A DNA stretch of 64,000 bases from the IMG/VR virus record IMGVR_UViG_3300029574_000202; one strand, 5' to 3'. This document shows, one piece after another, positions 7,315 to 36,185 of this stretch. The notes beneath the pieces are model-generated. The model did no database searches. It was not told the DNA's origin and worked only from the letters and a program-made list of their open reading frames with translations. How positions within the stretch are numbered: position 1 is the first letter of the stretch; every line of letters begins with the position of its first letter. A program made the position numbers and the translations under genes. This stretch comes from a virus.

Positions 7315-7420
7315 CTTGATATATTTGCATATATGCAAATATATTAGTACCTTTGTATATAGAAAGTTGGAAGTTAGATTTGATTGTCCAAATCATCCGA
7401 ATAAGTTAAACCAATTAAAT
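7315..7420 (+). promoter_or_regulatory. Diverged copy D of the promoter-leader cassette. It has atatTTTGcatatatgcaaatatattagTAccTTTGtatatag, a different leader hairpin (GATTTGA...TCAAATC) and gttaaaccaattaaattcag.
   Basis: The promoter core and the downstream taaaccaattaaa are conserved. The leader hairpin sequence is replaced but a hairpin is retained. Confidence 0.5.
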
Positions 7421-7549
7421 TCAGTGTAATATAAATACAAAATAAAAAGTCCAGACATCCACAAAGCGGAGACAAATAATGTTAAATTATTGTTAAATAT
7501 TAATATATATCACAACATATATCAAAATAATCACTATTTTTGCAATCAA

Positions 7550-8395
7550 ATGACATACGACTACGACAAATTAAGAGAGTACGTTAAACGATGTAATTGG
7601 TGTTGGGCTCAGTCTATGATAGAAGTGCCGCATGAATACATTCATCGTGACAAGTGCGCATTGACTCGCGAAGAGTTCTATTATTTCGTTAGCGCCCAGC
7701 GTGAAAACGGAATACACGAACGATGGGGTAAATACAATTTCCCATATCTTTACCTGGACGGATACAAGTATTGGACAATGGGAGACCCATTTGAAACCAC
7801 TTGGATTTTAAATCGCCAGAAGGTTTTCAACGAATTTGACTTTCTCGACTGGCCGATTCCAAGACTTCATACAAACCAAGAAATGGACATGATGGCGAAA
7901 ACCATTTTGTATTCATTTAAAGAAAAGAAGGTTTTTGAGGCTGGAATAGGAAATGGCGATTTCGTGAAGTTGTCTAAAATCCGACCGGAAATGTATTATG
8001 GGGTTGACCCTAGCAAAAAGTCAATATTGCAGTTCCGTGCGAACGCATTCGGATTTTATAGAAGGTGCTCTACAAAGTCATTCGAAGAGTCAATCAACAA
8101 ATGGCTTTCAGCAGACAGCGTCGTAATTTCCCTATTTGGAACAGCATCGTATTTCATGCATCAGTATCTAGAGAAACTTGGTAAGAGTGGGATTGATTAC
8201 TGTTTGATGTTTTATCGAGAGGACTTCGAACCTGAAGAGTTCAAAGATATGCATCACTTTAAGTACGACCGGGTACAATTGAAGTCAATGTTCCCAGGCT
8301 GCAATCTCTACAACCACCAAAAATACATAACAATATCAAACAAAAAGTTAGTTTGGCAGCAACCGACAATAGAAAATGAATTATTCCCAGTATGA
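7550..8395 (+). CDS. Class I SAM-dependent methyltransferase-like protein with a Cys-rich N-terminal extension
   Basis: Motif I KVFEAGIGNGDF and motif II YYGVDPS. The ORF track starts at 7490, but the Asn/Ile-rich first 20 codons are doubtful, so the start is placed at 7550 (MTYDYDK). Confidence 0.45.
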   Translation: MTYDYDKLREYVKRCNWCWAQSMIEVPHEYIHRDKCALTREEFYYFVSAQRENGIHERWGKYNFPYLYLDGYKYWTMGDPFETTWILNRQKVFNEFDFLDWPIPRLHTNQEMDMMAKTILYSFKEKKVFEAGIGNGDFVKLSKIRPEMYYGVDPSKKSILQFRANAFGFYRRCSTKSFEESINKWLSADSVVISLFGTASYFMHQYLEKLGKSGIDYCLMFYREDFEPEEFKDMHHFKYDRVQLKSMFPGCNLYNHQKYITISNKKLVWQQPTIENELFPV

Positions 8396-8918
8396 TGACA
8401 TAGCAGTCAATTATGACAACCTCTTTCGTGATGAAAGTAGTTTAGTCGAGAACCGTGAGGTGGGAGCGATGCTTCCACCTCTCAAAGGTTCTGTCTTAGA
8501 TATCGGTTGTGGAACAGGATTGCTAACGGAGGTATACGACATATCTCCACAGGATTATTTGGGCATCGATCCTAGTATTGGAATGTTAACACAGTTCCGC
8601 AAGAAACATCCAGAGTTTGCAGAACGTCTTGTAAACGAACCGTTCACTGGCAAAAACATAGATTGTAAAAAGTTTGATAATATTGTCGCTATGTTCGGTT
8701 CTCCGTCATACTTGTCAGGTTACGCCATAGTAGCTATATCTAAGAGCAATGCCCGTAAGTTTCTTATGTTCTACAAGGAGGGTTATCATCCTGTCACATA
8801 TGAAAAATGCGATGTCGAGTTTTCACATAATGTGTATTCAAAGAAATCCCTTATTCATTTGTTTGGAGAAAATAACGTATCAGAATATCACAACTATATA
8901 ATTGTAAATAGCCAATGA
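8376..8918 (+). CDS. Class I SAM-dependent methyltransferase
   Basis: Motif I VLDIGCGTGLLTE and an acidic residue in LGIDPS; length 180 aa. Confidence 0.65.
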   Translation: MNYSQYDDIAVNYDNLFRDESSLVENREVGAMLPPLKGSVLDIGCGTGLLTEVYDISPQDYLGIDPSIGMLTQFRKKHPEFAERLVNEPFTGKNIDCKKFDNIVAMFGSPSYLSGYAIVAISKSNARKFLMFYKEGYHPVTYEKCDVEFSHNVYSKKSLIHLFGENNVSEYHNYIIVNSQ

Positions 8919-9571
8919 AACAGAAAGGGTTGCGTTATGATGGAAGTATTGATAAATACCCCATAACAGAAGGAGAAGTCTATTGTTTGGACAATGGAAG
9001 TAAAATCACCATTGCTGATATTACATTAGAGCTTCCTGAGTTTTCGGAAAAGGCAGATTGTGTGTTTATTGACCCTGCTGGAAACAAGGGTGTTCTAAAG
9101 GCTTACTATACAAAAGCGGAAAAAGAATGCCCAGTCCAAAGCTTTGACGAGTTTGTTACACACATTAAAAAATGTATCGAACAAATAAAACCAGACAGGC
9201 TTTTTGTAGAGTGCTTTGCTCGTAATAAGACTCAAATTATCAAAATGGTCGAGTCTTTATTCCCATGTGTTAAAATTTACAACAACACATATTACCACAG
9301 TCCTAAAAATGCTTGTTGGATAGTACAAGGAACAAAACAGCCAGAGGATTGGAAACTTGAAGGAATGGATGAATGGGAAGCCGTTTTCAAAATATGTGAA
9401 GATGTTCCTTTCAAAGCCATAACAGATTTCTTCTTGGGACAAGGGCTCGTCGCTGAGGCAGCTTTTAATGCCGGTAAGGTATTTTATGGAAGCGACATGA
9501 ATCGCAATAGACTTGCCGTTGCTATAAACCGCATAGCAAAACGAGGAGGAGATTGGACAATAAACAAATAA
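8915..9571 (+). CDS. Beta-class (N6A/N4C-type) DNA methyltransferase-like protein with an atypical catalytic motif DPAG instead of DPPY
   Basis: The order is motif IV first (ADCVFIDPAGNKG), then motif I (DFFLGQGLVAEAAFNAGKVFYGSDMN, compare DPFxGSGTT...GiE.N). Only 218 aa. Confidence 0.5.
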   Translation: MKQKGLRYDGSIDKYPITEGEVYCLDNGSKITIADITLELPEFSEKADCVFIDPAGNKGVLKAYYTKAEKECPVQSFDEFVTHIKKCIEQIKPDRLFVECFARNKTQIIKMVESLFPCVKIYNNTYYHSPKNACWIVQGTKQPEDWKLEGMDEWEAVFKICEDVPFKAITDFFLGQGLVAEAAFNAGKVFYGSDMNRNRLAVAINRIAKRGGDWTINK

Positions 9572-9578
9572 AAATCCT

Positions 9579-10313
9579 ATGATAAAGCTATCACAAATTA
9601 TTATCCTTAACGTTCCCAAAAGAGAACGTGAGGGCAAGTATCTAAAAAAACTTATAGAGACAAGTGCTAAGCCTTTTGGTATAGAGGTAAGTATTTCCAT
9701 GGATAGAGGTTTAGGATTGTGGGATAATTACTCAAGAGCGCTAACGCAGGATGTAGCCGAGGGAACACACAGAATGATTATCCATGATGATATATCTTTT
9801 GACAGAAACATCCTCGAGAAAATACTTTACATCCTTTCTCATGCCCCTGAGCACAACATTATCAGTTTTTACAATCCAACCAATGGAGATTATATGGACT
9901 GCTTTAATAAAGGCAAGCATGTAATCTCAACAAAGACAAACTTTTGGCTACAGGCAAGTGTTTACCCAAACGACTTGGCGAAGGATTTCGTAGAGACATC
10001 TAATAAAATGACTGATGACCAAACCAGATATGACGACTCACGACTTAAAGCATATTTGCAGGCGAAAGGAACGTGTCTGTATGCTATCGTTCCCGGTTTG
10101 GTTCAGCATTTTGGTGCATACAGAAGCACTTTTGGGAATCCAGGTTCCGTCGGAGGGATACAGCGCTATAGCAACACATATAACAACCAGTTAGATGTAA
10201 AGACTATCAATTGGGAAGAGGAATTTAAAACTCCATATCTCGCAAAATCAAGCAAAGATTGGGTCAAAGAAATAGTAAATAAGGAATTTTTCGATGAATA
10301 CAAGAAACTCTAA
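9579..10313 (+). CDS. hypothetical protein (244 aa); a possible transferase within the modification island
   Basis: ORF, ATG-initiated, embedded between the MTase-like and ParB-like genes. No clear motif was recognised. Confidence 0.4.
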   Translation: MIKLSQIIILNVPKREREGKYLKKLIETSAKPFGIEVSISMDRGLGLWDNYSRALTQDVAEGTHRMIIHDDISFDRNILEKILYILSHAPEHNIISFYNPTNGDYMDCFNKGKHVISTKTNFWLQASVYPNDLAKDFVETSNKMTDDQTRYDDSRLKAYLQAKGTCLYAIVPGLVQHFGAYRSTFGNPGSVGGIQRYSNTYNNQLDVKTINWEEEFKTPYLAKSSKDWVKEIVNKEFFDEYKKL

Positions 10314-10749
10314 AGAAAACCTTGCTTTAAAATTGGCGAAAGACAATATAGAGGTAGAACAGGTGAAACCACTGCATATTGACTACATTAAAGTTGATGA
10401 CATTTATCCAAATGACTACAACCCCAACACTCATGATGCAGATAGCTTTGACTTGCTCGTAAAGTCCTTGCTTTATTTTGGCTTTACCCAACCTATCGTT
10501 GTTAATCGCTCTACAATGCAGATTGTGGATGGAGAAAACCGCTACAGAGCCGCTTGCGTAATTGGATATGAAATGGTTCCAGTTTGTTTTGTTGACTTCG
10601 ATGAAGAAAAACTTAAATATGCGACTATTATGCACAATGCCGCACGTGGACATAATAATAACGAAATGATGACTAAGTTAAAAAATTACTTGGATACCCA
10701 TTTCGACAACTCCAGTGACAAAGTACTCTTAAATAACAGGAAGAAATGA
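10294..10749 (+). CDS. ParB/sulfiredoxin-fold (ParB-like nuclease domain) protein #1
   Basis: Core VDGENRYRAA corresponds to the ParB N-terminal domain motif DGxHR..A. Length 151 aa. Confidence 0.55.
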   Translation: MNTRNSKENLALKLAKDNIEVEQVKPLHIDYIKVDDIYPNDYNPNTHDADSFDLLVKSLLYFGFTQPIVVNRSTMQIVDGENRYRAACVIGYEMVPVCFVDFDEEKLKYATIMHNAARGHNNNEMMTKLKNYLDTHFDNSSDKVLLNNRKK

Positions 10750-11939
10750 TATTTTATAGTGACAAGAATGTTTACGAAGCGGCTCTTGAGAGATTTAGAT
10801 ACATCTTTAAAGAGTTTTATGGCAAACGCAAGATTGTTGTAACAATGTCTGGCGGTAAGGATTCGACTGTAGTCCTAAATCTCGCCCATGAGGTTATGCA
10901 AGAAATGGGAATAGAGAAAATACCGGTTCTTTTCTTAGACCAAGAGGCTGAAACACCAATGACAATTGAATACGTACGATACATCATGCATCTTCCGTGG
11001 GTTGAGCCGTATTGGATTCAGTCGTATTTCCAAGAATGGAACGCCTCAAAGGGAGAGTGGTTCAACGTATGGGGGCCAGGAGAAAAGTGGATTCGCGAAA
11101 AAGAGCCGGATTCTTATGGTGACTTGGAGATACCGCACAACCAGTATTTCTCCAAGACCCTTGATCAGGTGCACAGAATGTTATTTGGAAAAGACTACCT
11201 TACTTTGGGTGGTGTACGAATTGAGGAGTCGCCTGCAAGATTGTCGGGTCTTACAAGGGGAGAGTGCCTTCCAGGCATCACATGGGGAGGAGGCGGTGGA
11301 TATTACAAAGACGGAACCCCAAGAAGTCTTGTTCTCTACCCTATTTGGGATTGGAAGGTATATGATGTGTGGTATTACATCTTCAGCAATAAGCTTCCGT
11401 ACTGCAAACTCTACAATTATCAATTCACACAAAAACCGTTACGAGCGTGTAGAGTTAGCTCGTTAATCCACGAGCAAGCTATACACGACCTTGGATTTAT
11501 TAAGGAGGTAGATCCGTGGTTTTATGATAAACTTGTCAGACGAGTTGCCAATGTCAATACATCTGTACACGCTTTTAACGATGTGGCGAATTATTGTTAC
11601 AACCTACCTCCTTATTTCAAGGATTGGGACGAATACGTTGACTACCTTGCCGATAACCTTTGTGAAGACAAGAAGAATGCGGAAACTATTAAAAGGGGAT
11701 ATCGCTCAGCAAAAAAACGCAACACAGCGAAAGCTGGACATTGTCAAGAGTGCGTTGATTACGTAATACATCAGATAGGCTTCACAAGCGCAGTTTGTGT
11801 TATTGCTGAGGATTTTGGCATGAAGAGAATACAGAGCGTTGAGCGCTCACTACGGCAGTATTTGAGTGACAATTATGTTAAAATAGAAAAAGCTAATAAA
11901 GAATATGAATCTTCAAGAAAACATAAAGAAGGAGTTTGA
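10746..11939 (+). CDS. PAPS-reductase-family PP-loop ATP pyrophosphatase, IbrA/DndC-like, with a C-terminal extension
   Basis: PP-loop VTMSGGKDSTVVL. A block LYPIWDWKVYDVWYYIFSNKLPYCKLYNYQ matches the CysH-family PLxDW..DVW.YI....PYN.LY region. At 397 aa it has an extra C-terminal region of about 150 aa, as in IbrA/DUF3440 proteins. Confidence 0.8.
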   Translation: MIFYSDKNVYEAALERFRYIFKEFYGKRKIVVTMSGGKDSTVVLNLAHEVMQEMGIEKIPVLFLDQEAETPMTIEYVRYIMHLPWVEPYWIQSYFQEWNASKGEWFNVWGPGEKWIREKEPDSYGDLEIPHNQYFSKTLDQVHRMLFGKDYLTLGGVRIEESPARLSGLTRGECLPGITWGGGGGYYKDGTPRSLVLYPIWDWKVYDVWYYIFSNKLPYCKLYNYQFTQKPLRACRVSSLIHEQAIHDLGFIKEVDPWFYDKLVRRVANVNTSVHAFNDVANYCYNLPPYFKDWDEYVDYLADNLCEDKKNAETIKRGYRSAKKRNTAKAGHCQECVDYVIHQIGFTSAVCVIAEDFGMKRIQSVERSLRQYLSDNYVKIEKANKEYESSRKHKEGV

Positions 11940-12564
11940 CGCAGCGAAAGACAAGCTGCAGTTCTTAAACGACCTTAGAAAATACATAAGCTCTTTGTCT
12001 CCAGAGAAAGTAAACCCGGTTGACTGTGTACTTTGGGTAGACAAAGACATGGTGGTTGCCAATAACTATAACCCAAACCATGTTGCCGACAAAGAAATGC
12101 GACTTCTTTATACATCGGTAAGAGAGGACGGATACACTATGCCTATCGTCACCATTTGGGATGAGAAACTACAGAAGTACGTAATCATTGACGGATTCCA
12201 CAGAAATCTCGTTATCCGCAAATTTGCTGACATAAACGAGCGTTGTGGCGGAAGATTGCCTATCGTAGTGCTCGACAAGGACATTGACCAGCGAATGGCA
12301 TCTACCGTCCGCCATAACAGAGCGCGAGGAAGTCATTCTGTCGACGGTATGGTGAACATTGTTTTCAATATGCTTCGTGACGGAAAGTCAGAGCGTGAGA
12401 TTTGTGAGCAGGTAGGACTTGAACAAAAGGAGCTCGTAAAGCTAAAATACGTGACAGGTTTTGCCAAAATATTTAAAAACTACAAGTACAACGCCGCAAT
12501 TGAAAAAGTCGTAGATGAGAGGCGTGTGGCAAGAGAAACAGCAAAGAAAGGAGAAACAGAATGA
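11905..12564 (+). CDS. ParB-like nuclease domain protein #2
   Basis: VIIDGFHRNLVIRKF (DGxHR motif). The N-terminal region resembles a ParB N-domain. Length 219 aa. Confidence 0.65.
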   Translation: MNLQENIKKEFDAAKDKLQFLNDLRKYISSLSPEKVNPVDCVLWVDKDMVVANNYNPNHVADKEMRLLYTSVREDGYTMPIVTIWDEKLQKYVIIDGFHRNLVIRKFADINERCGGRLPIVVLDKDIDQRMASTVRHNRARGSHSVDGMVNIVFNMLRDGKSEREICEQVGLEQKELVKLKYVTGFAKIFKNYKYNAAIEKVVDERRVARETAKKGETE

Positions 12565-13187
12565 AAGTAAAATCAGTTAAGCTAAGCGAGATTTACCCTT
12601 ATTACGATAATCCTCGCGACAACACAAATGCCGTAGAGCCTACAAAGGAGAGCATTAGGCGATTCGGTTTTGTAAAGCCGATTTTGGTAGATAAAGCAGG
12701 AGTTATCATTGCCGGTCACACACGTTACGTCGCAGCTTATCAATTAGGCATGGAGTACGTTCCTGTTGTATATTCCAGCATGGATGATGAGATGGCGAAG
12801 AAGTATCGCATCCTTGATAATAAACTTGCCGAAAAGTCATCATTTGACGAAGACCAGCTCTTGGAAGAGTTGCGAAATATGGAAGTGCCAACAGAAATGC
12901 AGGTCTTCTTCTTCGAGGATATAGACCAAATGCTTAATTTCTCCTTTGATTCAATTAGTCAGCAAGCAGAGGAATACGGTGGCTTCCAAGATGATTATTC
13001 ATCAGTTGATAACGAAAATTTAGAAGCCACATCATCTGAAACAGAAACTACATCTACCGACGAAGAGGAGGAAGACCCCGCAAAAGACCTATTCGTACTA
13101 AAAGAACGCGAAGATGGAAGCCACTACATGAAGGTTGTTTGTCCATTCTGCGGCAATATGGAAACCATTGAAATAGAGGAGGTATAA
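12561..13187 (+). CDS. ParB-like nuclease domain protein #3 with an acidic linker and a single C-terminal CxxC
   Basis: IIAGHTRYVAAYQLG (GxxRxxA); acidic tract SSETETTSTDEEEEDP; C-terminal VVCPFCGN. Confidence 0.65.
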   Translation: MKVKSVKLSEIYPYYDNPRDNTNAVEPTKESIRRFGFVKPILVDKAGVIIAGHTRYVAAYQLGMEYVPVVYSSMDDEMAKKYRILDNKLAEKSSFDEDQLLEELRNMEVPTEMQVFFFEDIDQMLNFSFDSISQQAEEYGGFQDDYSSVDNENLEATSSETETTSTDEEEEDPAKDLFVLKEREDGSHYMKVVCPFCGNMETIEIEEV

Positions 13188-13188
13188 T

Positions 13189-13806
13189 ATGTCAGACATA
13201 AGAATCAACGATACTATCATAGAACTGCCAATTGAAAGCATCATACCGCATGATGGTTCGCACAAAACAGACGAAAATGCAGTTAGTGCTCTTATTCAGT
13301 CGATAAAAGACTTCGGTATTACGCAGCCCATCTCGATTGATAAAAACAACGTTATTGTAACTGGCAATGGAGTATACAAAGCGGCTAAGGCTTTGGGAAT
13401 TGACAAAATTCCGTGCATACGTGTAGGCTATCTCACAGACGAGCAGATACAGCAGTATCGTATTGCAGACGACAAAACATCAGAGTTCGCAACATGGAAC
13501 GAGAAAAAGCTCCGTAAAGAATTATCTTATTTAGGCGATCCGAACAGCTTACAGTATGCGTTCGACGAAAGCATAACTAACATGCTCGGTCTTAATGCCA
13601 AGCCTAAGGCCCCAAAAACAGTCACCGTTCCAACAAAGGAAGAAACAAATCATTCTGTTAAAAAAGTAATTACCGAGGAGCAAAAGGATCAGAAGTTCAA
13701 AGAGGAGTTGAAGGGTGTGGAAGAGACCATTCAAGTTAAGCCCTCAGAATACTACGAATATCATTGCTCGAATTGCGGCAAACTTGTAAAAGTAAAGAAG
13801 CCATGA
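13189..13806 (+). CDS. ParB-like nuclease domain protein #4 with a single C-terminal CxxC
   Basis: VIVTGNGVYKAAKALG in a ParB-like N-domain context (IESIIPHD...); C-terminal YHCSNCGK. Confidence 0.55.
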   Translation: MSDIRINDTIIELPIESIIPHDGSHKTDENAVSALIQSIKDFGITQPISIDKNNVIVTGNGVYKAAKALGIDKIPCIRVGYLTDEQIQQYRIADDKTSEFATWNEKKLRKELSYLGDPNSLQYAFDESITNMLGLNAKPKAPKTVTVPTKEETNHSVKKVITEEQKDQKFKEELKGVEETIQVKPSEYYEYHCSNCGKLVKVKKP

Positions 13807-14339
13807 CACAAGAAACATCACAGCAGAAGACAAAATCGTTCGTGCATAGGATTCCAAACCCAGTTGGCAGACCTTTTAAAATAAAGTCTGCCTCCGAACT
13901 TTGGGAAAAGTTTGTGGCTTACTGTGATGATGTTGAAAACAACCCCTGGCAAGTAAAGACCGGCAGTAACTCTATTGCTGGAGACAATGGTAGGCAAAGC
14001 AATACTATGCGACAAGAAGTACGTGTTATGCAAAGAGCATACACTCTTTATGGGTTTTGTGCTTTTTGTGGCATAGTCCAAAAATGGGCTGACTTCAAGC
14101 GTGGTAACATGAAACGTAAAGGTTTTGAGCCTGTTATTATGCAGATTGAGAATGTCGTTGCATCACAACAGCTTGATGGTGCGCTAATTCATCAATTTGA
14201 CAGTAACATTGTTGCCCGGCTGAATGGTCTTGCCGACAAGCACATCCAGGAAGTCACTGGTAAAGATGGTGAAGAATTCAAATTCCCGAAATTATCTATT
14301 GACGATATTAACGAACTGAAAGATATAAATGGATTTTGA
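13803..14339 (+). CDS. Terminase small subunit (putative)
   Basis: Sits immediately upstream of TerL with an ATGA overlap to the previous gene (start at MTQETSQQ). N-terminal basic, HTH-like region PNPVGRPFKIKSASELWEKFVAYCDD. Length about 178 aa. Confidence 0.5.
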   Translation: MTQETSQQKTKSFVHRIPNPVGRPFKIKSASELWEKFVAYCDDVENNPWQVKTGSNSIAGDNGRQSNTMRQEVRVMQRAYTLYGFCAFCGIVQKWADFKRGNMKRKGFEPVIMQIENVVASQQLDGALIHQFDSNIVARLNGLADKHIQEVTGKDGEEFKFPKLSIDDINELKDINGF

Positions 14340-15804
14340 AAAGCAACGGTTTCTCCATAGGCAGCTATTAGCGTCTTCGCTATTGCAGTTTACTACTAAG
14401 ATGTTCGCCTACACGGCTCGCAGAGAGTACGTCGTAGGCGAACATCATAAGATTATATGCGATGCGTTAATGGACGTTATAAAGGGCAGGACGAATAAAC
14501 TCATTATAAACATATCGCCACGTTACGGAAAAACGTTACTTTGTTCCCAAATGTTTATCGCCTATGGACTAGCACTAAACCCGGCATCAAAATTTTTGCA
14601 CATTTCTTATTCAGGAAGCTTGGTTCAAGAAAATTCCATGGCGGTGAAAGACACAATAACTTCAACATATTTTCAGGCACTTTTCCCAGAAGTACAAATA
14701 AGGAAGAACGATAACACACGTGCTAAATGGAGCACTACAGCAGGAGGGGGCGAGTATGCCACATCTACCCTTGGACAGATTACCGGTTTTGGTGCTGGTC
14801 AAGCAGAAATGACAGAGGAGGAGCTAAAGAACATAGATGACTTTACTGCACAGTTCAATCCAGACCATTTTGCAGGCGCAATAGTTATAGATGACCCATT
14901 GCGCCCAGATGATGCTCTTTCTGATAATGTAAGAGAGTCTATCAACAGACGATTTGAGACTACCATAAGAAACCGTGTAAACTCACGTAAGACACCAATT
15001 ATCATAATTATGCAGCGATTGCATGAGCATGACCTATGCGGATATTTGCAAGAAATTGAGCCAAACGAATGGACTGTTGTATCATTACCTGTTATTAAAC
15101 GTGACGAAGACGGCACAGAGCACGCATTATGGCCTTTCAAACATACACTTGAAGAGTTGTATAAAATCAAGCACGCCAGCGAGTTTGTGTTTGAAACCCA
15201 ATATATGCAGAACCCAACCCCAATGGAGGGACTCATGTATCATGTCTTTAGAACGTATGATGCACTGCCAGAAAGGAGAAAGGCACGTATGCTTGGAAAT
15301 TATACAGACTCTGCAGACACTGGTTTCGATTTTCTGTGCTCTATATGTTTCGATGCGCATGATGATGGATATTATGTAACAGACGTATTGTACACCAAAC
15401 GTCCAATGGAGTTTACAGAGCCTGCACAAGCTAATATGCTTAAACGAAATAAGACAGACATTTGTTTTGTGGAAAGCAATAATGGAGGTCGTTCATTCGC
15501 CCGAAACGTCGAACGCCTTACAAAAGAGTACGGTAATCGAAAAACAATATTCGTAACATTTACTCAGTCTAAGAACAAACAGATACGAATATTCACACGT
15601 TCGAGTGAAGTAAATAACCGACTCGTCTTCCCCTCTAACTGGGAACAGCTATGGCCAGAGTTTGCACATGACTTAAAAGCATATCGCAAGGAGGGATATA
15701 ACGCTCATGATGATGCTCCTGACGCAGCGACAGGAATTATAGAGAAATGCGAAGAATGGCTAAACAACATCTCGGACGAACAGATTATGAGAGACTTTTT
15801 GTAA
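14329..15804 (+). CDS. Terminase large subunit
   Basis: Walker A ISPRYGKT, Walker B AIVIDDP and IIIMQRLHEHDL. RNase-H-like nuclease domain with DSADTGFDF and HDDAPDA. Length 491 aa. Confidence 0.9.
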   Translation: MDFEKQRFLHRQLLASSLLQFTTKMFAYTARREYVVGEHHKIICDALMDVIKGRTNKLIINISPRYGKTLLCSQMFIAYGLALNPASKFLHISYSGSLVQENSMAVKDTITSTYFQALFPEVQIRKNDNTRAKWSTTAGGGEYATSTLGQITGFGAGQAEMTEEELKNIDDFTAQFNPDHFAGAIVIDDPLRPDDALSDNVRESINRRFETTIRNRVNSRKTPIIIIMQRLHEHDLCGYLQEIEPNEWTVVSLPVIKRDEDGTEHALWPFKHTLEELYKIKHASEFVFETQYMQNPTPMEGLMYHVFRTYDALPERRKARMLGNYTDSADTGFDFLCSICFDAHDDGYYVTDVLYTKRPMEFTEPAQANMLKRNKTDICFVESNNGGRSFARNVERLTKEYGNRKTIFVTFTQSKNKQIRIFTRSSEVNNRLVFPSNWEQLWPEFAHDLKAYRKEGYNAHDDAPDAATGIIEKCEEWLNNISDEQIMRDFL

Positions 15805-19700: not shown

Positions 19701-21281
19701 TTAGAAGTTATATTCTTTTATTTCCAGAATACCATCACGTAGTATAGCGCATAAAACGTTTCTCAAAGGAGTATTAGAGTTATTGCTTTTTAGTACTCCC
19801 AACATTCGCTTGTATCCATCTATAAGCTTCTCTTCTTCAAACATAGAAGGCTCGTGGAAATATAAGCAAACATCATGATATTCGGCTGCGACATCTTCTC
19901 TTAAGTTGAATTTCTTTAATTGCCGACTCTTGTTTAGCAGTTGGTTTCTATAATCCACGGTGTTACTAGTAATAGATGCCAAGTCCATCAAGCGGCCGTC
20001 TAAAACCATGTCAAGAGCAGCCATCTCTTTCCCCGTTTTGTCTTTCTTACCTTCTTCGCAAAATATAACACTATGTCCATCAGAAAATGCCTTTTCTAAA
20101 AATTCATTTTCTAAATCGTCACCATCCATCGTTCCGTTAAAAAAGTCTTTTGCAGTATAGTTGTGCTTGTTATGACTTATGTGAACAGCTTTGACGCCAC
20201 CTGCGGAATTTATTTCAACATCCTTATAGTTTGTATCATTCTTGAGTTTCTGATACTCGTTTCTTTTTCGAACGACCAAACGCACTTCCTTATCTGCAAT
20301 AAAATTAGCGTTATCAGCAAGAAAGTAAGGTAAACTTTTATTAGATTTTATCTTATCAGCGTTGTTCGATATCCACTTGTTAAAACTGCTTGGGACATCG
20401 GTGTATAATTTCTTCGGGCCTTCGCCCCAATACTCTTCTTCAGTCATTATAACGGGTACAGCGTAGCACATGCAGTTAACGTGCCAACCACTCCAAGGGA
20501 AGCCATTGGGGTATTTTCCGGCAAGTTCATCGCACATATCCTCTTTAGGGTGGCTCCCACTTGTTCTGATTTCAATGCCCTTGACAAAATCAAAGCGACG
20601 CCAACGTTCCTGCTCTGCAGTGCGATAAGCCATGTTTATCTCGTTGCGAGCGAGTCTAACACTACGATATTCGCACCCTGAAACATCTATCGCTTTACCA
20701 TATTTCTTCTTGTAATCTTTAGCAAGCGAAGGATAATCATTTAGATATTTACTAACACGTTTACTAAGCTTAACAGCGCTCATACCCTTCTCTATCCCCG
20801 TGGCCAATGCTCGCTCCAATGACTTCTTAACATCCTCCCTTTGATTCCAAATACGTTGAGACAGATTCATTCCTTTTATTGTTCGATTCTTGAACGCTTC
20901 TTTTGCGGCATTATTCTTCTCGTAGTATGCCTTAACTCGCTTTTGCCCTATACGCCTTGAGTAAGACTTAATGACTCTGCGCACAAGCAAGTCTTGGAGA
21001 GTGTTGCTACTTTCCCATTCGTTAGATATTCCACTGTAAACAAGTGTTTGCATATTACTTGAATAGTAATTGAGCAGAGATTTCACTCTACGTTCGGTCT
21101 TGGGATAATTAGAAAAAGAAAACTCATCGCTGCCGTCATAACCTACATCAACAGCAAGTTTTGCAGCCTCTTTTGCGAGCATTGCATATATAGCCAACAC
21201 CTTTCTAGTGTATTGGTTCAGTCTTTTGGACAGGTCTTTGTACGCTTTCTTTTGATTTGGTGTGCTTATTTTTGCCATCAC
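19701..21281 (-). CDS. Phage head morphogenesis protein, Mu gpF / SPP1 gp7 family
   Basis: RLARNEINMAYRTAEQERW...GIEIRTSGSHPKEDMCDELAGKYP...WHVNCMCY is the canonical Phage_Mu_F C-terminal domain ending in H.NC.C. Length 526 aa. Confidence 0.85.
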   Translation of the reverse strand: MMAKISTPNQKKAYKDLSKRLNQYTRKVLAIYAMLAKEAAKLAVDVGYDGSDEFSFSNYPKTERRVKSLLNYYSSNMQTLVYSGISNEWESSNTLQDLLVRRVIKSYSRRIGQKRVKAYYEKNNAAKEAFKNRTIKGMNLSQRIWNQREDVKKSLERALATGIEKGMSAVKLSKRVSKYLNDYPSLAKDYKKKYGKAIDVSGCEYRSVRLARNEINMAYRTAEQERWRRFDFVKGIEIRTSGSHPKEDMCDELAGKYPNGFPWSGWHVNCMCYAVPVIMTEEEYWGEGPKKLYTDVPSSFNKWISNNADKIKSNKSLPYFLADNANFIADKEVRLVVRKRNEYQKLKNDTNYKDVEINSAGGVKAVHISHNKHNYTAKDFFNGTMDGDDLENEFLEKAFSDGHSVIFCEEGKKDKTGKEMAALDMVLDGRLMDLASITSNTVDYRNQLLNKSRQLKKFNLREDVAAEYHDVCLYFHEPSMFEEEKLIDGYKRMLGVLKSNNSNTPLRNVLCAILRDGILEIKEYNF

Positions 21282-21447
21282 AGCTTATGTTTGAAATATT
21301 CGCAGCAATCATGATTTAACAACATACTATGCCTTTGGAAATCACATTTGCAAAGTATTGGTTCATTAAGAAGGCTCATGCTGTGAAATTCACGAGCATG
21401 AGCACAATCCTTACAGAAATATTTTATTTTTACACTTCTATTCTTTG

Positions 21448-22908
21448 TCATTCTTCAGAAAATAGGTTGGACATAGATTGAGCAGACCTTTCACTCTCGG
21501 CTTGCTCTTCTTTTTGTATTTCATCGTATGTATCATCAGCGTTGTCGGTAAGGTTAGCCCGGCGTATAGCTTCCTTGTGACTGATAACAGGCTTGTTTCC
21601 GTCAGCTTTCATCCATTTTTCTATCTCTGCAGCCTCATCCTCTTGTATAAATGGAGTAATCACATGCTCAATAGAAATTTCATCCAACCGCGAAGCCCAG
21701 CTTGTATTCATCTTTGCAAGAAAAGCCTTTATCACATTAGACTCTCTCTCAAAACCTTCTATCCATTTGCCCGCCTCTTCACCGATTTTAAGATGAGCAT
21801 CCATAAGAAGGGTTTTACGCGAGTCGTACCCAATATTACCAAGAGACTTCATGTTCTCAAATGAAATATCAGGCATTTGTGACTGCATGAAGTATAGTTT
21901 AATCAGCGTATCTACGTGATACTTCAAAGCATCAATAGCCTGTTGCCAAGAGACATAACTAACATCGCCATCCTCAGTAACCCTATATACCCGTCGAGTC
22001 TCACCTTTATGCTCTTCCCCGACAATAGACCCTGCAACCTTTAATATTGGAGCCGAGTTATATGCTATAACATCACTATTACGAGATATTGTATATTCTA
22101 TATTCTCACGTATAGGCTTCAGACCCTCCCAACACGGCTCGTTTCGATACCAATAAACCGCCGGTATCTTTTCTATACTTATCTCGTCGCTTATTATAGG
22201 CTGCCATCCGTTTGCATTATCTTCTGAGGATAAGCTCCATTTGTAATGATGAGTAGCGGTGAATGTTTCAAAGAAAGTTATCTTTGTATCAGCAACTTTC
22301 TTTTCATACTCAAAAGAAAGGGCAAGCAAATCTTCGTATTCATCGAATAAAGGATAAATACGAACACCATCCATAGGTGAAAATGTGCGACATTTAAGTT
22401 TGTACTCGCTATCAAAACCATACAGTTTATTCCTCTTCCGCTGCGTATACCAAAGTGTAAACATTTCGCACGAAGCATAAAGGCATTTTGCACGCTTCAT
22501 ATTCTCAGCATCAATATGTGCGTTAGTATAAATCTTTTCTATCGCTTTAGCTATTGATTTAAGAGTGTCGTCATTCCGATCATACGAGTATACACGCTTT
22601 ACAGGAATAGATACAGTAAATTCAGAAATGCGTCGTGTCAGCAATTTTTCAAGACCGATAGGAATACGTGCCGCCTTCTCTACTGCACCTCCAGGCAGTT
22701 CCTTGTCTCGTCGTCCTACTTTATCTTCCACAATTTCGTGAAGACGAGGTTCGTACTCTGTAATTAATTGACTCCAACTTGGAACAGAAACAGATCTCTC
22801 TTTTAGCCTACCAATGATAGTAGAAACATCTGTGTGAGAAAAAATTTCATCTAAATCTATCATACTCTTTTCTTGCAAAAATAAAAATATATGCTGAGAA
22901 ATATTCAA
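21448..22908 (-). CDS. Portal protein (putative)
   Basis: A 486-aa ORF immediately upstream of, and co-oriented with, the Mu-F-like gene; size and position fit a portal. The start may be at 22863 (MIDLDEIF). Confidence 0.55.
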   Translation of the reverse strand: MNISQHIFLFLQEKSMIDLDEIFSHTDVSTIIGRLKERSVSVPSWSQLITEYEPRLHEIVEDKVGRRDKELPGGAVEKAARIPIGLEKLLTRRISEFTVSIPVKRVYSYDRNDDTLKSIAKAIEKIYTNAHIDAENMKRAKCLYASCEMFTLWYTQRKRNKLYGFDSEYKLKCRTFSPMDGVRIYPLFDEYEDLLALSFEYEKKVADTKITFFETFTATHHYKWSLSSEDNANGWQPIISDEISIEKIPAVYWYRNEPCWEGLKPIRENIEYTISRNSDVIAYNSAPILKVAGSIVGEEHKGETRRVYRVTEDGDVSYVSWQQAIDALKYHVDTLIKLYFMQSQMPDISFENMKSLGNIGYDSRKTLLMDAHLKIGEEAGKWIEGFERESNVIKAFLAKMNTSWASRLDEISIEHVITPFIQEDEAAEIEKWMKADGNKPVISHKEAIRRANLTDNADDTYDEIQKEEQAESERSAQSMSNLFSEE

Positions 22909-27969: not shown

Positions 27970-28359
27970 ATGAAACAGAGATATATAGCCGGTGATTGGG
28001 TGAGATATATAGGAGTAGCCTCACCAATAGTCGTACAAATTACAGAAGTGAGAGAGGACAACCTTTTAACTGATTTCGGCAAATGTAACTGGTACCTTGC
28101 AGACCACAGTGAAGTGGAGCCTATCCCTTTAACTGTTGAAGTACTAATATGCAACGGATGGAAATGGAGTGACGAACACGAAGAATTTGCCAAGCATGGA
28201 GTAGCGATATACCCTGTGGACAACTACTATCGCACCGATATTTTTAACATGAAAAAACGGTATATTCACGAACTCCAACATCTGCTATTCGGTTTGGGTT
28301 TGGATAATTATATGAAGATGCCAAAGAATTATATATTGCCGGAAGTAGGTAAGAAATGA
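27970..28359 (+). CDS. hypothetical protein (129 aa) with a C-terminal HELQHLLFGLGL motif; paralogue of the ORF at 29194
   Basis: The C-termini YIHELQHLLFGLGLD and YVHELQHILWALGLN are clearly related and both contain HExxH. Confidence 0.45.
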   Translation: MKQRYIAGDWVRYIGVASPIVVQITEVREDNLLTDFGKCNWYLADHSEVEPIPLTVEVLICNGWKWSDEHEEFAKHGVAIYPVDNYYRTDIFNMKKRYIHELQHLLFGLGLDNYMKMPKNYILPEVGKK

Positions 28360-29192
28360 CAGATAGCTTACGAATAAAAGTTGATATAGCTTTAAAGTTA
28401 CTAAAATCAACATGTAGAGATAAAGAGGTTGAGTTGTCATATAGCGGAGGTAAGGATTCTGACGTAATACTTGAGCTTGCGAAAATGGCTGGTATTAACT
28501 ATAAGGCTATATATAAAAATATAACAATCGACCCTCCCGGGACAATTAGACATGTGCGAGAGAATAATGTAGAGATTGTTAGACCCAAAGAGACGTTTTT
28601 TCAATTAATTGAACGCAAAGGATTTCCTACAAGGAGGGCGAGATTTTGTTGCCAGATACTTAAAGAATACAAGATAATGGATATTGCGATTCAGGGAATA
28701 AGACGCTCCGAGAGTTCAAAACGTGCAAAACTATACAAAGAGCCAACCCTGTGTAGAATTTACAATAACAACAAGGCAAATCATGTAGAAGTTATTCTGC
28801 CGATACTCGACTGGACAGATAATGATGTAGTTGAGTTTATTACAGAGCGTGGCATTAAACTACATCCTCTCTATTATACTGACGGAAAGGTCGATGTCAA
28901 AAGAAGGCTTGGGTGCATGGGTTGCCCCTTATCTAAGGACAGAGGACTTGAAGAATTTAAAAGGTATCCGAATCTGGTAAAAGCCTGGTTACGAGCTGGA
29001 CAAAAGTGGTGGGACAATCACCCGAACATTAAGACCCGTCAAAAATTCAATTCAATATATGAAGTATTTGTTGGTAATTTGTTTTTTGTATCATACGAGG
29101 ACACTATGCGGAGTGTCAGAGGAGAATTATTTAATAATCCTATTGATTGTAGAAAGTTTCTTGAAGAATATTTTAAAATAAACTTGGAATAA
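28356..29192 (+). CDS. PAPS-reductase-family PP-loop ATP pyrophosphatase (second copy, 278 aa)
   Basis: PP-loop LSYSGGKDSDVILEL; PILDWTDNDVVEFITERGIKLHPLYY; C-terminal Cys pair RLGCMGCP. Confidence 0.75.
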   Translation: MTDSLRIKVDIALKLLKSTCRDKEVELSYSGGKDSDVILELAKMAGINYKAIYKNITIDPPGTIRHVRENNVEIVRPKETFFQLIERKGFPTRRARFCCQILKEYKIMDIAIQGIRRSESSKRAKLYKEPTLCRIYNNNKANHVEVILPILDWTDNDVVEFITERGIKLHPLYYTDGKVDVKRRLGCMGCPLSKDRGLEEFKRYPNLVKAWLRAGQKWWDNHPNIKTRQKFNSIYEVFVGNLFFVSYEDTMRSVRGELFNNPIDCRKFLEEYFKINLE

Positions 29193-35174: not shown

Positions 35175-36185
35175 ATGAAAATACTCAAAGAAATCAAAGT
35201 TCCTACAGGCGAAATCTACACCGCAAAAGGAGATAAAGGCGTGTTGGAGTTTCTGACAGTAGCCGACTATGGCAAAGACGCAAATATCAAAGCCGACTTC
35301 CTCGGCATAACAAGAGAGCTGAATGGAGTGCCGAACGGAACGCCGATGCCACTAACCAAAAAATGGGTAATAACAATCTCTACCCAGTACGGCTGCTCAA
35401 TGAACTGCAAGTTCTGCGATGTGCCGAAAGTCGGACCGGGACGCAACGTAACACTGAACGACCTGCGCCACGAGATAACAACGGCATTAGGTATGCACCT
35501 GGAGGTTAATCACACCAAACGCCTTAATGTACACTATGCACGCATGGGCGAGCCGACATGGAACGAGGCTGTAATCGAGCACGCGCGCTTCTTCTTGCGC
35601 GTAGATATTGTTCCCTACATCGGAAATTCACTTGTACATCCTGTAGTAAGCACAATGCTCCCGAAGCATAATTGTAACTTGTATGATTTTATCCACAAAT
35701 GGGTTAGAGTTAAGAATACCGACTACAACGGAAACGCAGGCTTGCAGTTCTCTATAAACTCTACCGACGACGCGCAGCGAGAATACCTGTTCTCGGGAAA
35801 CGCCTTGCCATTGAGAGATATTGCAGAACTTGCCGACACACTTGAAACTCCGCGCGGTCGCAAGTACACCCTTAACTTCGCGCTTGCCGACGACTCCATT
35901 ATTGACGGCAAGGTACTTGCTTCGATGTTTGACCCACGCAAGTTCATGTGTAAGATTACACCACTTCACAGAACAAACAGCTGCGAAGCCAACCACATTC
36001 AGACAAGCGGAGGTTACGACTCGTTTGTGCCGTACAAGAAAGTGGAAGAGGATTTGAAGGCAAACGGATTCGATGTAATCGTGTTCGTTCCGTCGTATGA
36101 CGAGGACAACGGATTGATTACTTGTGGCAATGCAATCCTGTCGGGCAAGAAGCCGACATCAAGCTACAAAGAAGTGGTATTTTAA
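35175..36185 (+). CDS. Radical SAM enzyme of the RlmN/Cfr family (RNA adenine C2/C8 methyltransferase-like), N-terminally shortened
   Basis: ISTQYGCSMNCKFCDV versus RlmN VSSQVGCALECKFCST (CX3CX2C); NVHYARMGEPTWN versus RlmN MGMGEPLLN; C-terminal DEDNGLITCGNAIL versus RlmN GDDIDAACGQL, which contains the second catalytic Cys. Length 336 aa. Confidence 0.6.
   Translation: MKILKEIKVPTGEIYTAKGDKGVLEFLTVADYGKDANIKADFLGITRELNGVPNGTPMPLTKKWVITISTQYGCSMNCKFCDVPKVGPGRNVTLNDLRHEITTALGMHLEVNHTKRLNVHYARMGEPTWNEAVIEHARFFLRVDIVPYIGNSLVHPVVSTMLPKHNCNLYDFIHKWVRVKNTDYNGNAGLQFSINSTDDAQREYLFSGNALPLRDIAELADTLETPRGRKYTLNFALADDSIIDGKVLASMFDPRKFMCKITPLHRTNSCEANHIQTSGGYDSFVPYKKVEEDLKANGFDVIVFVPSYDEDNGLITCGNAILSGKKPTSSYKEVVF

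Follow-up and report, generated by a model that had tools for sequence, protein, structure and literature searches.

Two neighbouring genes directly upstream of the terminase genes of a temperate phage encode P3 and P4, which family comparison places as an old duplicate pair within an extensive family of short ParB proteins from phages; each ends in a single CxxC, and P3 has the motifs of a nucleotide pocket that in P4 is degenerate yet, judging from its orthologues, under constraint. We tentatively hypothesize, with slightly less than even confidence, that P3 and P4 form a heterodimer with a shared 2+2 cysteine zinc site and one nucleotide pocket, which would function as a clamp or adaptor in a packaging-coupled modification of the phage DNA. 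The pair belongs to a set of four ParB/Srx-fold genes (P1 to P4) that flank the gene of an IbrA-type PP-loop enzyme on the plus strand at positions 10294-13806 of the window (the whole stretch of DNA that was analysed, 64,000 nucleotides):

7490-10313, plus strand: upstream accessory genes that accompany the block
10294-10749, plus strand: P1, 151 residues, a ParB N-domain and little else
10746-11939, plus strand: IbrA-like PP-loop ATP pyrophosphatase (PAPS_reduct and DUF3440)
11905-12564, plus strand: P2, IbrB orthologue, with a ParB/Srx N-domain and an HTH-like region at the C-terminus
12561-13187, plus strand: P3, the "live" short ParB
13189-13806, plus strand: P4, the "dead" short ParB
13803-14339, plus strand: TerS, P22 gp3-type terminase small subunit (Pfam GP3_package, 1.9e-15; phrog_606, 1.1e-20)
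14329-15804, plus strand: TerL, terminase large subunit (phrog_38, 1.6e-89), which closes the conserved block

The earlier note had placed the four reading frames correctly. Neighbouring genes of the block have start and stop codons that overlap or almost abut: the stop of P1 and the start of IbrA share an ATGA, and so do the stop of P4 and the likely start of TerS (13803-13806). For TerS the ORF finder gives a TTG at 13764, but the ATG at 13803 is the likelier start on the basis of start-codon context. As read from these frames, translation of the block is coupled to that of the terminase genes. The phage, a temperate one of the Segatella/Prevotella group, encodes a tyrosine integrase, which provides a route of integration; the block forms a conserved module of the late operon, in fusion with the terminase genes. 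The prophage is very common in gut bacteria, and the block directly precedes its DNA-packaging genes.

The order IbrA-IbrB-P3-P4-TerS-TerL recurs in all of the relatives compared, including those with as little as 39% identity in IbrA. Over the same range the P3-type and P4-type genes are adjacent and in constant order in all lineages looked up, and TerS lies immediately 3' of the P4-type gene in all related loci. A lone CxxC-ParB gene occupies the equivalent position in loci L081, L167 and L256, and such single-gene loci (L081, L256) are consistent with a duplication history that started from a homodimer. Enterobacterial chromosomes also carry IbrA-IbrB pairs, and no further phrog_620-type ParB was found at these loci. 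The earlier note had regarded the array as an oddity of a single prophage. This does not hold, because the core block is conserved in many phage lineages and additional ParB genes beside IbrAB also occur in Polynucleobacter and Spirochaetia assemblies, in prophage-type loci with terminase genes adjacent. Nor is the array a "four-fold tandem expansion": the four genes are, by their family relationships, ancient and of different subfamilies, P3 is 34% identical to P4, and P2 has no significant BLASTP match to P3 or P4. The description of one PP-loop enzyme is true locally, but the window contains another PAPS_reduct gene at 28356-29192.

Signature motifs were located in P1, IbrA and P2 as follows:

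10411-10428, plus strand: P1 Box I, NDYNPN
10528-10554, plus strand: P1 Box II, DGENRYRAA
10633-10650, plus strand: P1 Box III-like motif, HNAARG
10848-10865, plus strand: IbrA PP-loop motif, SGGKDS
12061-12078, plus strand: P2 motif, NNYNPN
12190-12207, plus strand: P2 motif, DGFHR
12310-12330, plus strand: P2 motif, RHNRARG

The IbrA-like protein matches Pfam PAPS_reduct (PF01507, 1.4e-16), phrog_2302 (1.5e-67) and DUF3440 (PF11922, 1.7e-5, at 25.1 bits with a cut-off of 25). In an alignment of 40 homologues (36-100% identity), SGGKDS has five invariant residues out of six and G36 reaches at least 90% conservation, while no cysteine is invariant. CysH has an essential cysteine in a C-terminal ECGLH motif and DndC a cysteine dyad, and the lack of an invariant cysteine (n = 40) does not fit IbrA being a CysH PAPS reductase or a DndC sulfurtransferase; its scores against the NCBIfam cysH and DndC models are far below the cut-offs.

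P2 falls below the threshold for Pfam ParB_N (E 0.018), but it matches the "ParB-like" family phrog_2159 (7e-63), is linked to P1 by BLASTP (2e-8) and aligns with P3-type proteins in hhalign (E 2e-4, probability 47%). An IbrB profile built from loci of other phyla recovers P2 at E 1.5e-101, and DGFHR and NRARG are invariant in the IbrB alignment (15 sequences from several phyla). The IbrB-type gene lies directly downstream of IbrA in 26 of 27 IbrA-type genome loci, the exception being L090, where it is upstream and split. Position, the NxYNPN/DGFHR/RHNRARG motifs and the HTH-like C-terminus thus all identify P2, at the level of sequence, as a member of the IbrB family. P1 matches Pfam ParB_N (E 5e-13) and aligns with Bacillus subtilis Spo0J (6sdk, E 3.5e-10), GENRYRAA facing GERRFRAA; family profiles and the sequence itself gave neither an HTH nor a CxxC tail. 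Because P1 scores 65 bits with the IbrB profile and 56 bits with that of the P3 family, and is restricted to the closer lineages among the loci compared, we place it by profile as a short lineage-restricted ParB intermediate between the IbrB and phrog_620 families.

P3 and P4 match Pfam ParB_N (5e-9 and 2e-7, respectively) and phrog_620 (3.7e-42 and 6.6e-37). Their AlphaFold2 models (mean pLDDT of 86 and 74.5) match the CTP-bound ParB structures 6sdk, 7bnk and 7bnr in Foldseek with E of about 1e-6; the P4 model superimposes on ParB N-domains with an r.m.s.d. of 2.1 Å over 91-94 columns, and the alignment of the P3 model extends past the N-domain to about 154 columns. The ParB fold claimed for all four proteins is thereby borne out by Pfam for P1, P3 and P4, by phrog_2159, P1 and hhalign links for P2, and by AlphaFold2 for P3 and P4. 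The two short proteins differ in the following elements:

12609-12623, plus strand: P3, intact pocket motif, NPR
12714-12728, plus strand: P3, intact pocket motif, GHTR
12816-12833, plus strand: P3, intact motif, DNK
about 12936-13106, plus strand: P3, acidic disordered linker, net charge about -15
13140-13151, plus strand: P3, terminal CxxC, CPFC, residues 194-197
13255-13272, plus strand: P4, GSH-K-T-D where NPR is expected
13363-13380, plus strand: P4, GNGVYK where GHTRY is expected
13765-13776, plus strand: P4, terminal CxxC, CSNC, residues 193-196

All the motifs quoted for a GxxR/DGxHR core are present, but the supposed core of P4 has no arginine. The Box II arginine is found in P1 (GENR), P2 (GFHR) and P3 (GHTR) and in 129 of 130 family sequences, P4 (GNGV) being the sole exception, and ParB-fold proteins in which this arginine is exchanged for alanine no longer bind NTP (PMC12704722). 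In P4-type orthologues (39-85% identity) the replacements are fixed: SHx and GN[GA]V occur in 52/52, His-25 in 52/52, and the arginine in none of the 52. P4 therefore keeps the ParB fold but is probably not a nucleotide switch, as its motifs suggest, whereas P3, with its NTP-pocket motifs retained, is predicted to be nucleotide-competent. The acidic spacer noted earlier in P3 is a constant feature of its type (-14 to -20 across 20 orthologues), and the charges of the P3 and P4 linkers are strongly different.

Both models place the CxxC at a β-hairpin turn, with strands at residues 188-193 and 200-205 in P3 (pLDDT 83-94) and at 188-192 and 199-203 in P4. The single terminal CxxC that had been pointed out in each protein is kept in homologues, namely in 52/52 P4-type and in all P3-type sequences examined, the latter having exactly two conserved cysteines. 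Because 37 of 84 CxxC-tailed family members contain no other cysteines, one chain cannot provide four ligands. Pfam zinc-ribbon models are matched by the tails below threshold and over half the model length, and models of other types are not matched at all. A complete zinc ribbon within one chain can thus be dismissed in favour of a single knuckle; the models agree with the proposal that each tail is half a ribbon, and the whole would take two chains.

The hairpin charges of the two types are reciprocal. P3-type strands carry a mean of +1.9 (strand 1) and -2.0 to -2.7 (strand 2), P4-type strands means of -1.1 and +3.0, and in the remaining CxxC-tailed family members strand charge is close to 0. 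Two of the 13 lineages (L253 and L255) fit the pattern poorly, strand-1 signs being exchanged in both types in L255, and the p-values of these statistics overstate independence, as related sequences were used. Together with the constant adjacency and coupling of the two genes, this complementarity favours the heterodimer that the earlier note had suggested, as far as sequence comparison can indicate. The single CxxC tail does not itself point to a hetero-partner: it is common in the wider family (80 of 131 short top matches), one-gene loci included, and in single-gene members it evidently works without one, which speaks against the heterodimer and modification reading.

The genes upstream of P1 bring DNA modification into consideration, although most of the modification-gene assignments near the block are below family thresholds:

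7490-8395, plus strand: class-I SAM-methyltransferase-like gene (Methyltransf_25/12/23/11 matches)
8376-8918, plus strand: paralogous class-I SAM-methyltransferase-like gene (Methyltransf_25/12/23/11 matches; BLASTP E 1.5e-13 between the two)
8915-9571, plus strand: 218-residue protein with a sub-threshold DNA-methylase motif (N6_N4_Mtase, E 0.016)
9579-10313, plus strand: 244-residue protein

The same accessory genes lie upstream of IbrA in L161, L163 and L255, a glucosyltransferase-like gene takes this position in L081 and L167, and some relatives have methyltransferase-like and GT2-like genes inserted within the ParB array. The window ORFs scanned, which cover part of the window, contain no TET/JBP dioxygenase gene.

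We propose that P3 and P4 may be obligate partners, each contributing one CxxC β-hairpin knuckle to a shared four-cysteine intermolecular zinc ribbon, which would replace the classical ParB C-terminal dimerization domain, and that the oppositely charged strands would keep the hairpins in register. Because only P3 is predicted to have a competent pocket, such a dimer would be asymmetric and NTP-gated, a putative clamp or adaptor on DNA. By analogy with phage ParB-dependent thymine dioxygenases, ParB-methyltransferase fusions, DpdB and DndB, the ParB proteins might recruit or activate DNA-modifying enzymes on phage DNA being readied for packaging; candidates are IbrA and the methyltransferase- and glycosyltransferase-like products of neighbouring genes.

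Could P3 and P4 instead be independent, each forming a homodimer by way of its CxxC hairpins, much as the Rad50 zinc hook does, with jobs that diverged after duplication (one an NTP-dependent clamp, say, and the other a binder of DNA or protein that needs no NTP)? The single-copy CxxC-tailed ParBs, the wide occurrence of the tail and the unlike linkers are all compatible with this, but symmetric pairing would oppose like charges (on strand 2 about -2 to -2.7 in P3 and about +3 in P4), tails elsewhere in the family are near-neutral, the two types always co-occur with coupled genes, and retention of a "dead" copy beside its "live" counterpart typically marks a heterodimer; we consider independence unlikely. 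The least probable of the explanations weighed here is that the CxxC, carried on a flexible arm, supplies IbrA with a dithiol for redox or sulfur-relay chemistry, as thioredoxin does for CysH. IbrA does belong to the PAPS-reductase/PP-loop family, whose members CysH and DndC rely on cysteine chemistry (PMC10853773), but it has no invariant cysteine of its own, the modelled hairpin turn has zinc-knuckle geometry rather than that of a thioredoxin helix cap, and the Pfam matches of the tails, all below threshold, are exclusively to zinc ribbons.

The linkage to TerS fits a packaging role equally well, with the ParBs as accessories that prepare the pac region, by marking or processing it, for the small terminase of gp3 type. 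HNH endonucleases that adjoin terminase genes assist cos cleavage. Zinc-ribbon HNH enzymes beside terminase genes are a recognized theme (PMC3592412), and fusion of the block to TerS-TerL in all lineages, coupling of P4 to TerS and the ParB-IbrA pair of the cultured Flavobacterium phage FCV-1, which sits between terminase and portal genes, point the same way. We nevertheless judge this rather improbable, because no parS-like, pac-like or centromere-like repeats were found around the block, the TerS of this phage has a CxxC that lacks conservation, the ParB family to which these proteins belong also occurs in fusions with DNA methyltransferases (phrog_498), and IbrA-IbrB pairs are likewise present on enterobacterial chromosomes. 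It is very doubtful that the ParBs are prophage transcription regulators or partition proteins like KorB, VirB or P1 ParB. IbrAB were reportedly first described as activators of prophage-borne eib genes, with which the HTH-like C-terminus of P2 and the extended alignment of P3 would agree, but P1, P3 and P4 have no recognizable HTH, centromere-like repeats were not found around the block, the phage integrates by its tyrosine integrase, and regulators are not usually encoded beside the terminase in an operon of late type. A canonical partition ParB was rejected: TIGR00180 scores are 30-46 bits (cut-off 58.45), Pfam gave no HTH or C-terminal-domain match in the block ParBs, parS-like repeats were not found, and family libraries detected no ParA-like gene near the block or among the window ORFs scanned (part of the window).

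The heterodimer reading can be compared with several known systems. In Rad50, a CxxC per chain from two chains forms a four-cysteine site that dimerizes a DNA-handling NTPase; here, too, two chains with one CxxC each would be needed, but the resemblance is one of principle only, as the hook lies at a coiled-coil apex, the CxxC of P3 and P4 in a C-terminal β-hairpin, and the proteins are non-homologous. The ParB/Noc/KorB CTP clamps share the N-domain fold and the positions of Boxes I, II and III and are the best structural matches (6sdk, 7bnk, 7bnr, 7nfu, 8qa8). Unlike these, the present proteins come without a full HTH, ParA, parS-like repeats or a classical C-terminal dimerization domain, and one partner (P4) lacks the nucleotide-binding arginine; to our knowledge, known ParB-type clamps are homodimers.

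ParB-methyltransferase fusions (PF02195 with PF01555/PF13489) are enriched in prophages (PMC12704722), and the N-domains of P1, P3 and P4 match the fusion family phrog_498 (E 1e-24 to 1e-31) almost as well as phrog_620. The ParBs described here are, however, free-standing, with separate methyltransferase-like genes, and P3 and P4 have a CxxC hairpin at the C-terminus in place of an enzyme domain. The ParBs associated with 5mYOX enzymes in phages are needed for DNA thymine dioxygenase action and consist of an N-terminal nucleotide-binding domain, an unconserved disordered linker of 30-50 residues in the place of the DNA-binding domain, and a small C-terminal dimerization element (O'Toole et al. 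2025, bioRxiv 10.1101/2025.08.14.668559). Compared by architecture alone, P3 and P4 have the same build; an Asn in place of the Box I Gln of ParB and genes adjoining DNA-modification genes are further common features. The partner there is a TET/JBP dioxygenase, whereas the neighbour here is IbrA, and that report models homodimers and mentions neither a CxxC/zinc tail nor a live/dead pair. A parallel in gene order is IbrA/IbrB of the Escherichia coli YbdN/YbdM type, from which the present block differs by its larger size, with two or three extra ParB-fold genes and the terminase fusion, the enterobacterial loci having no additional phrog_620-type ParB. In both, an IbrA with PAPS_reduct and DUF3440 is followed by an IbrB ParB with DGFHR and NRARG, an order common to 26 genome loci across phyla, including Enterobacteriaceae.

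The four ParB/Srx-fold genes (P1 to P4) surround an IbrA-like PP-loop gene and are followed by the small and large terminase genes (TerS and TerL):

10294-10749, + strand: P1, 151 aa
10746-11939, + strand: IbrA-like enzyme, 397 aa
11905-12564, + strand: P2, 219 aa
12561-13187, + strand: P3, 208 aa
13189-13806, + strand: P4, 205 aa
likely ATG start 13803, + strand, after P4: gp3-type TerS
14329-15804, + strand: TerL

Adjacent genes in this run overlap or almost abut: the P1/IbrA and P2/P3 junctions share an ATGA overlap, and a single base separates P3 from P4. The ORF finder puts the TerS start at a TTG at 13764, within P4; the true start is likely the ATG at 13803, which overlaps the P4 stop (ATGA).

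P1, P3 and P4 match Pfam ParB_N above threshold. P2 falls below it (E 0.018), and a search of solved structures gave no match for this protein; we assign it to the fold because of its match to the “ParB-like” PHROG 2159 (E 7e-63), a BLASTP link to P1 (E 2e-8) and a profile comparison with P3-type proteins (E 2e-4, at a probability of only 47%). The AlphaFold2 models of P3 and P4 (mean pLDDT of 86 and 74.5, respectively) have CTP-bound ParB structures as their best structural matches. The motifs and both terminal CxxC pairs quoted in an earlier note on this DNA are all present; of its four GxxR-type cores, however, only those of P1 to P3 hold, as P4 lacks the arginine. The “one PP-loop enzyme” described there is not the only one in the phage. 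A second gene of the PAPS-reductase family, of the other common phage type (28356-29192, + strand; PF01507, E 1.6e-19; phrog_424, 2.9e-36), lies well away from the ParB cluster and lacks a ParB neighbor.

The four ParB genes belong to at least two families. P2 is the IbrB orthologue, carrying the IbrB-invariant NxYNPN, DGFHR and RHNRARG motifs and an HTH-like tail. An IbrB-type gene directly follows IbrA in 26 of 27 true IbrA loci, which were drawn from one-genome-per-species contigs and include the enterobacterial YbdN/YbdM type; in the remaining locus (L090) it lies upstream of IbrA and is split. P1 is a bare N-domain restricted to closer lineages, with the most ParB-like Box II of the four proteins (GENRYRAA) and a profile score slightly better for IbrB (65 bits) than for the P3 family (56 bits). 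P3 and P4 are mutual nearest relatives (34% identity, E 1e-22) and both fall into phrog_620, a very large family of short ParBs from phages, for which 23,849 cluster representatives were counted at E ≤ 1e-3. Pairwise identities do not exceed 29-34%, and P2 matches neither P3 nor P4 significantly, which led us to reject a recent tandem duplication. The one-off, four-fold tandem expansion proposed previously is thus contradicted by these identities, by the separate families and by the wide conservation of the block.

In every relative looked up, the order is IbrA, IbrB, P3 type, P4 type, TerS (gp3) and TerL, and it persists even where IbrA identity has dropped to 39% and where the genomic context otherwise differs. 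Each P4-type gene found has a P3-type gene immediately upstream, and both divergent P3-type proteins whose contigs were checked (P0245 and P0243) have a P4-type gene immediately downstream. More distant terminase-adjacent loci follow the same gene grammar with fewer ParBs:

Polynucleobacter locus: IbrA, IbrB, one CxxC ParB, TerS, TerL
Spirochaetia locus: P1-like ParB, IbrA, IbrB, (unknown), TerL, portal
further metagenomic phage: IbrA, IbrB, X, CxxC ParB, methyltransferase, (unassigned 204-aa gene at the expected TerS position), TerL

IbrA-type genes occur in at least 160 cultured phage records, and Flavobacterium phage FCV-1 has a ParB-IbrA pair between its terminase and portal genes. Viral contig scans and protein searches with the window proteins returned mostly near-identical relatives; diversity was sampled via an IbrA search, a distant P4 orthologue as query and contig look-ups. 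The TerL genes of two distant relatives (L169:9576-13140 and L171:7114-9852) contain inteins (Intein_splicing, LAGLIDADG).

The window comes from a temperate phage with DnaB-type replication, PcfK/PcfJ, capsid and portal genes, and a tyrosine integrase (62744-64000 in the window). Many near-identical contigs occur in IMG/VR and further assemblies of gut metagenomes. In the human gut the phage is extremely common in metagenomes, each protein cluster comprising hundreds of contigs; the carriers named in the sources are Segatella copri, S. hominis and Leyella stercorea. A nucleotide search against cultured phages gave no match, and the lineage is known from metagenomes and prophages only. At 19701-22908, two genes lie on the - strand and so run against the terminase and almost all other genes: one for the SPP1-type portal and one for head morphogenesis, the latter with an ADP-ribosyltransferase-like region (phrog_16625). 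The 336-aa protein encoded at 35175-36185 (+ strand) aligns at full length with phrog_24834, a family without assigned function, and hits Radical_SAM weakly, at a sub-threshold E of 9e-5. At about 7320-7343, within the 200 bp that separate PcfJ from the methyltransferase/ParB operon, lies a near-perfect AT-rich palindrome (ATATTTGCATAT/ATGCAAATAT), which could be an operator, promoter or terminator.

Among 130 sequences of the P3/P4 family, Box I (NPR) and Box II (GHTR) are almost invariant, and P4 alone is without the Box II arginine. None of the 52 P4-type orthologues (39-85% identity) has an arginine at the GxxR position, His25 and the motif glycine, G59, are present in all 52, and the residue after this glycine, N60, in 51. 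Since the replacement residues are themselves conserved, the loss of the motif is not decay. Mutating the Box II arginine of ParB-fold proteins is reported to abolish nucleotide binding (survey, PMC12704722), and on this ground P4 is predicted to be a nucleotide-blind partner.

The idea that each CxxC tail is half of a zinc ribbon survives better than expected. Without exception, the P3-type and P4-type sequences examined keep the CxxC. According to AlphaFold2, it forms the turn of a C-terminal β-hairpin beyond a disordered linker, with strands 188-193 and 200-205 in P3 (pLDDT 83-94) and 188-192 and 199-203 in P4; the tails give only half-length, sub-threshold matches to zinc-ribbon models. 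In the models, “half a zinc ribbon” therefore reads as an apt structural description. A single C-terminal CxxC is found in 80 of the 131 short top hits of the family. Because 37 of 84 CxxC-tailed family proteins have no further cysteine, a four-ligand site cannot form within one such chain, so that chain pairing, homo or hetero, would be the natural way of completing the putative zinc site. An intramolecular site in P4 (His25, Cys76, Cys193, Cys196) is unlikely, since Cys76 is replaced by valine in 3 of 52 orthologues and cysteine occurs at this position at similar rates with or without a tail (28/84 tailed vs. 10/46 untailed members). The FCAFCG motif of TerS was rejected as a third CxxC partner, as it is not conserved in TerS orthologues.

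Could P3 and P4 complete each other? Their hairpins carry reciprocal charges: in the P3 type the strand before the CxxC is basic (mean +1.9) and the strand after it acidic (mean -2.0 to -2.7), while in the P4 type the first is acidic (mean -1.1) and the second basic (mean +3.0). The corresponding values in other CxxC-tailed members are about -0.6 and -0.3; Mann-Whitney p-values on these charges are descriptive only, the sequences being related. Both partners of one relative locus (L255) have swapped strand-1 charge signs, and another (L253) misfits the pattern. The P3 linker carries a charge of -14 to -20 in 20 of 20 orthologues, and that of P4 is near neutral. The two types strictly co-occur, their genes are coupled, one pocket is dead and outgroups have a single copy; all four observations fit a history in which a homodimeric CxxC-ParB was duplicated into an obligate P3-P4 heterodimer with one working site. 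We hypothesize that P3 and P4 would form a heterodimeric nucleotide switch in which one pocket is live and the other permanently dead. In place of a ParB C-terminal domain, an intermolecular 2+2 cysteine zinc ribbon would close the switch, its halves perhaps having co-evolved opposite charges, and this asymmetric clamp could gate modification of the phage DNA by IbrA, coupled to packaging. As a whole, this reading, which would make the pair the first heterodimeric ParB-fold switch, is tentative and rather unlikely to be correct.

IbrA retains its PP-loop, yet none of its cysteines is invariant; a genuine PAPS reductase or a sulfurtransferase of the DndC kind is therefore improbable, and we consider an adenylating (ATP pyrophosphatase) chemistry the likelier option. 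The neighboring genes, most of whose family hits are weak, point to nucleic-acid modification. Tandem class-I SAM-methyltransferase-like genes lie at 7490-8395 and 8376-8918 (+ strand), the C-terminal half of the former being a paralogue of the latter (26% identity, E 1.5e-13), and are followed, up to 9571, by the gene of a 218-aa protein whose C-terminal part matches an N6_N4 DNA-methylase motif below threshold. Such a pair and methylase-like gene also precede IbrA in three relatives (L161, L163, L255). Elsewhere, a methyltransferase-like gene of ~195 aa, related to one near IbrA in the Polynucleobacter locus (L081), is inserted between P1 and IbrA (L045/L173), a GT2-like glycosyltransferase gene (~225 aa) between P3 and P4 (L188:2878-3561); two distant loci have a glucosyltransferase-like gene ahead of IbrA. 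Restriction-type genes lie a few genes upstream of the IbrA block in two relatives (L165:4282-5388, - strand, HSDR_N; L253:343-2091, - strand, GmrSD); GmrSD targets modified DNA. By analogy, we favor a nucleotide-gated ParB clamp or adaptor that would serve DNA-modifying enzymes when DNA is packaged. The main functional rival is a direct packaging role of the ParB proteins. A search for parS- or pac-like repeats near the block gave nothing but short repeats at chance level. PADLOC gave only weak matches, to the ParB portion of type II methyltransferases and to the BrxP and DndC PP-loops, none establishing membership in a defense system.

Phage ParB-fold diversity, IbrAB pairs and ParB-dependent DNA modification are already known. 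In our literature search, no publication described the CxxC tail or a live/dead ParB pair, let alone a conserved one with complementary half-ribbons, and none explained how IbrAB works biochemically. The central claims, namely zinc, heterodimer and substrate, are inferred. Research on ParB-fold CTP/NTP switches is young, and to our knowledge the family is known as homodimers only. If confirmed, the pair would add an asymmetric heterodimer to it, together with zinc-mediated clamp closure as a further mechanism, and would open a way to understanding IbrA/IbrB (YbdN/YbdM), a long-unexplained pair that is present in E. coli K-12. Most phage ParB-fold members are uncharacterized “orphans” (2025 survey, PMC12704722). 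Because the host phage is so common in the human gut, any role in DNA modification or anti-restriction would bear on the ecology of Prevotella-group phages. The sole functional precedent for short phage ParBs that we know of is the activation of a DNA dioxygenase. The short phage ParBs described in a 2025 preprint, without which a phage thymine dioxygenase does not modify DNA (O'Toole et al., bioRxiv 10.1101/2025.08.14.668559), share with P3 and P4 the build of domain, linker and small C-terminal element, and are the closest functional precedent for the pair.
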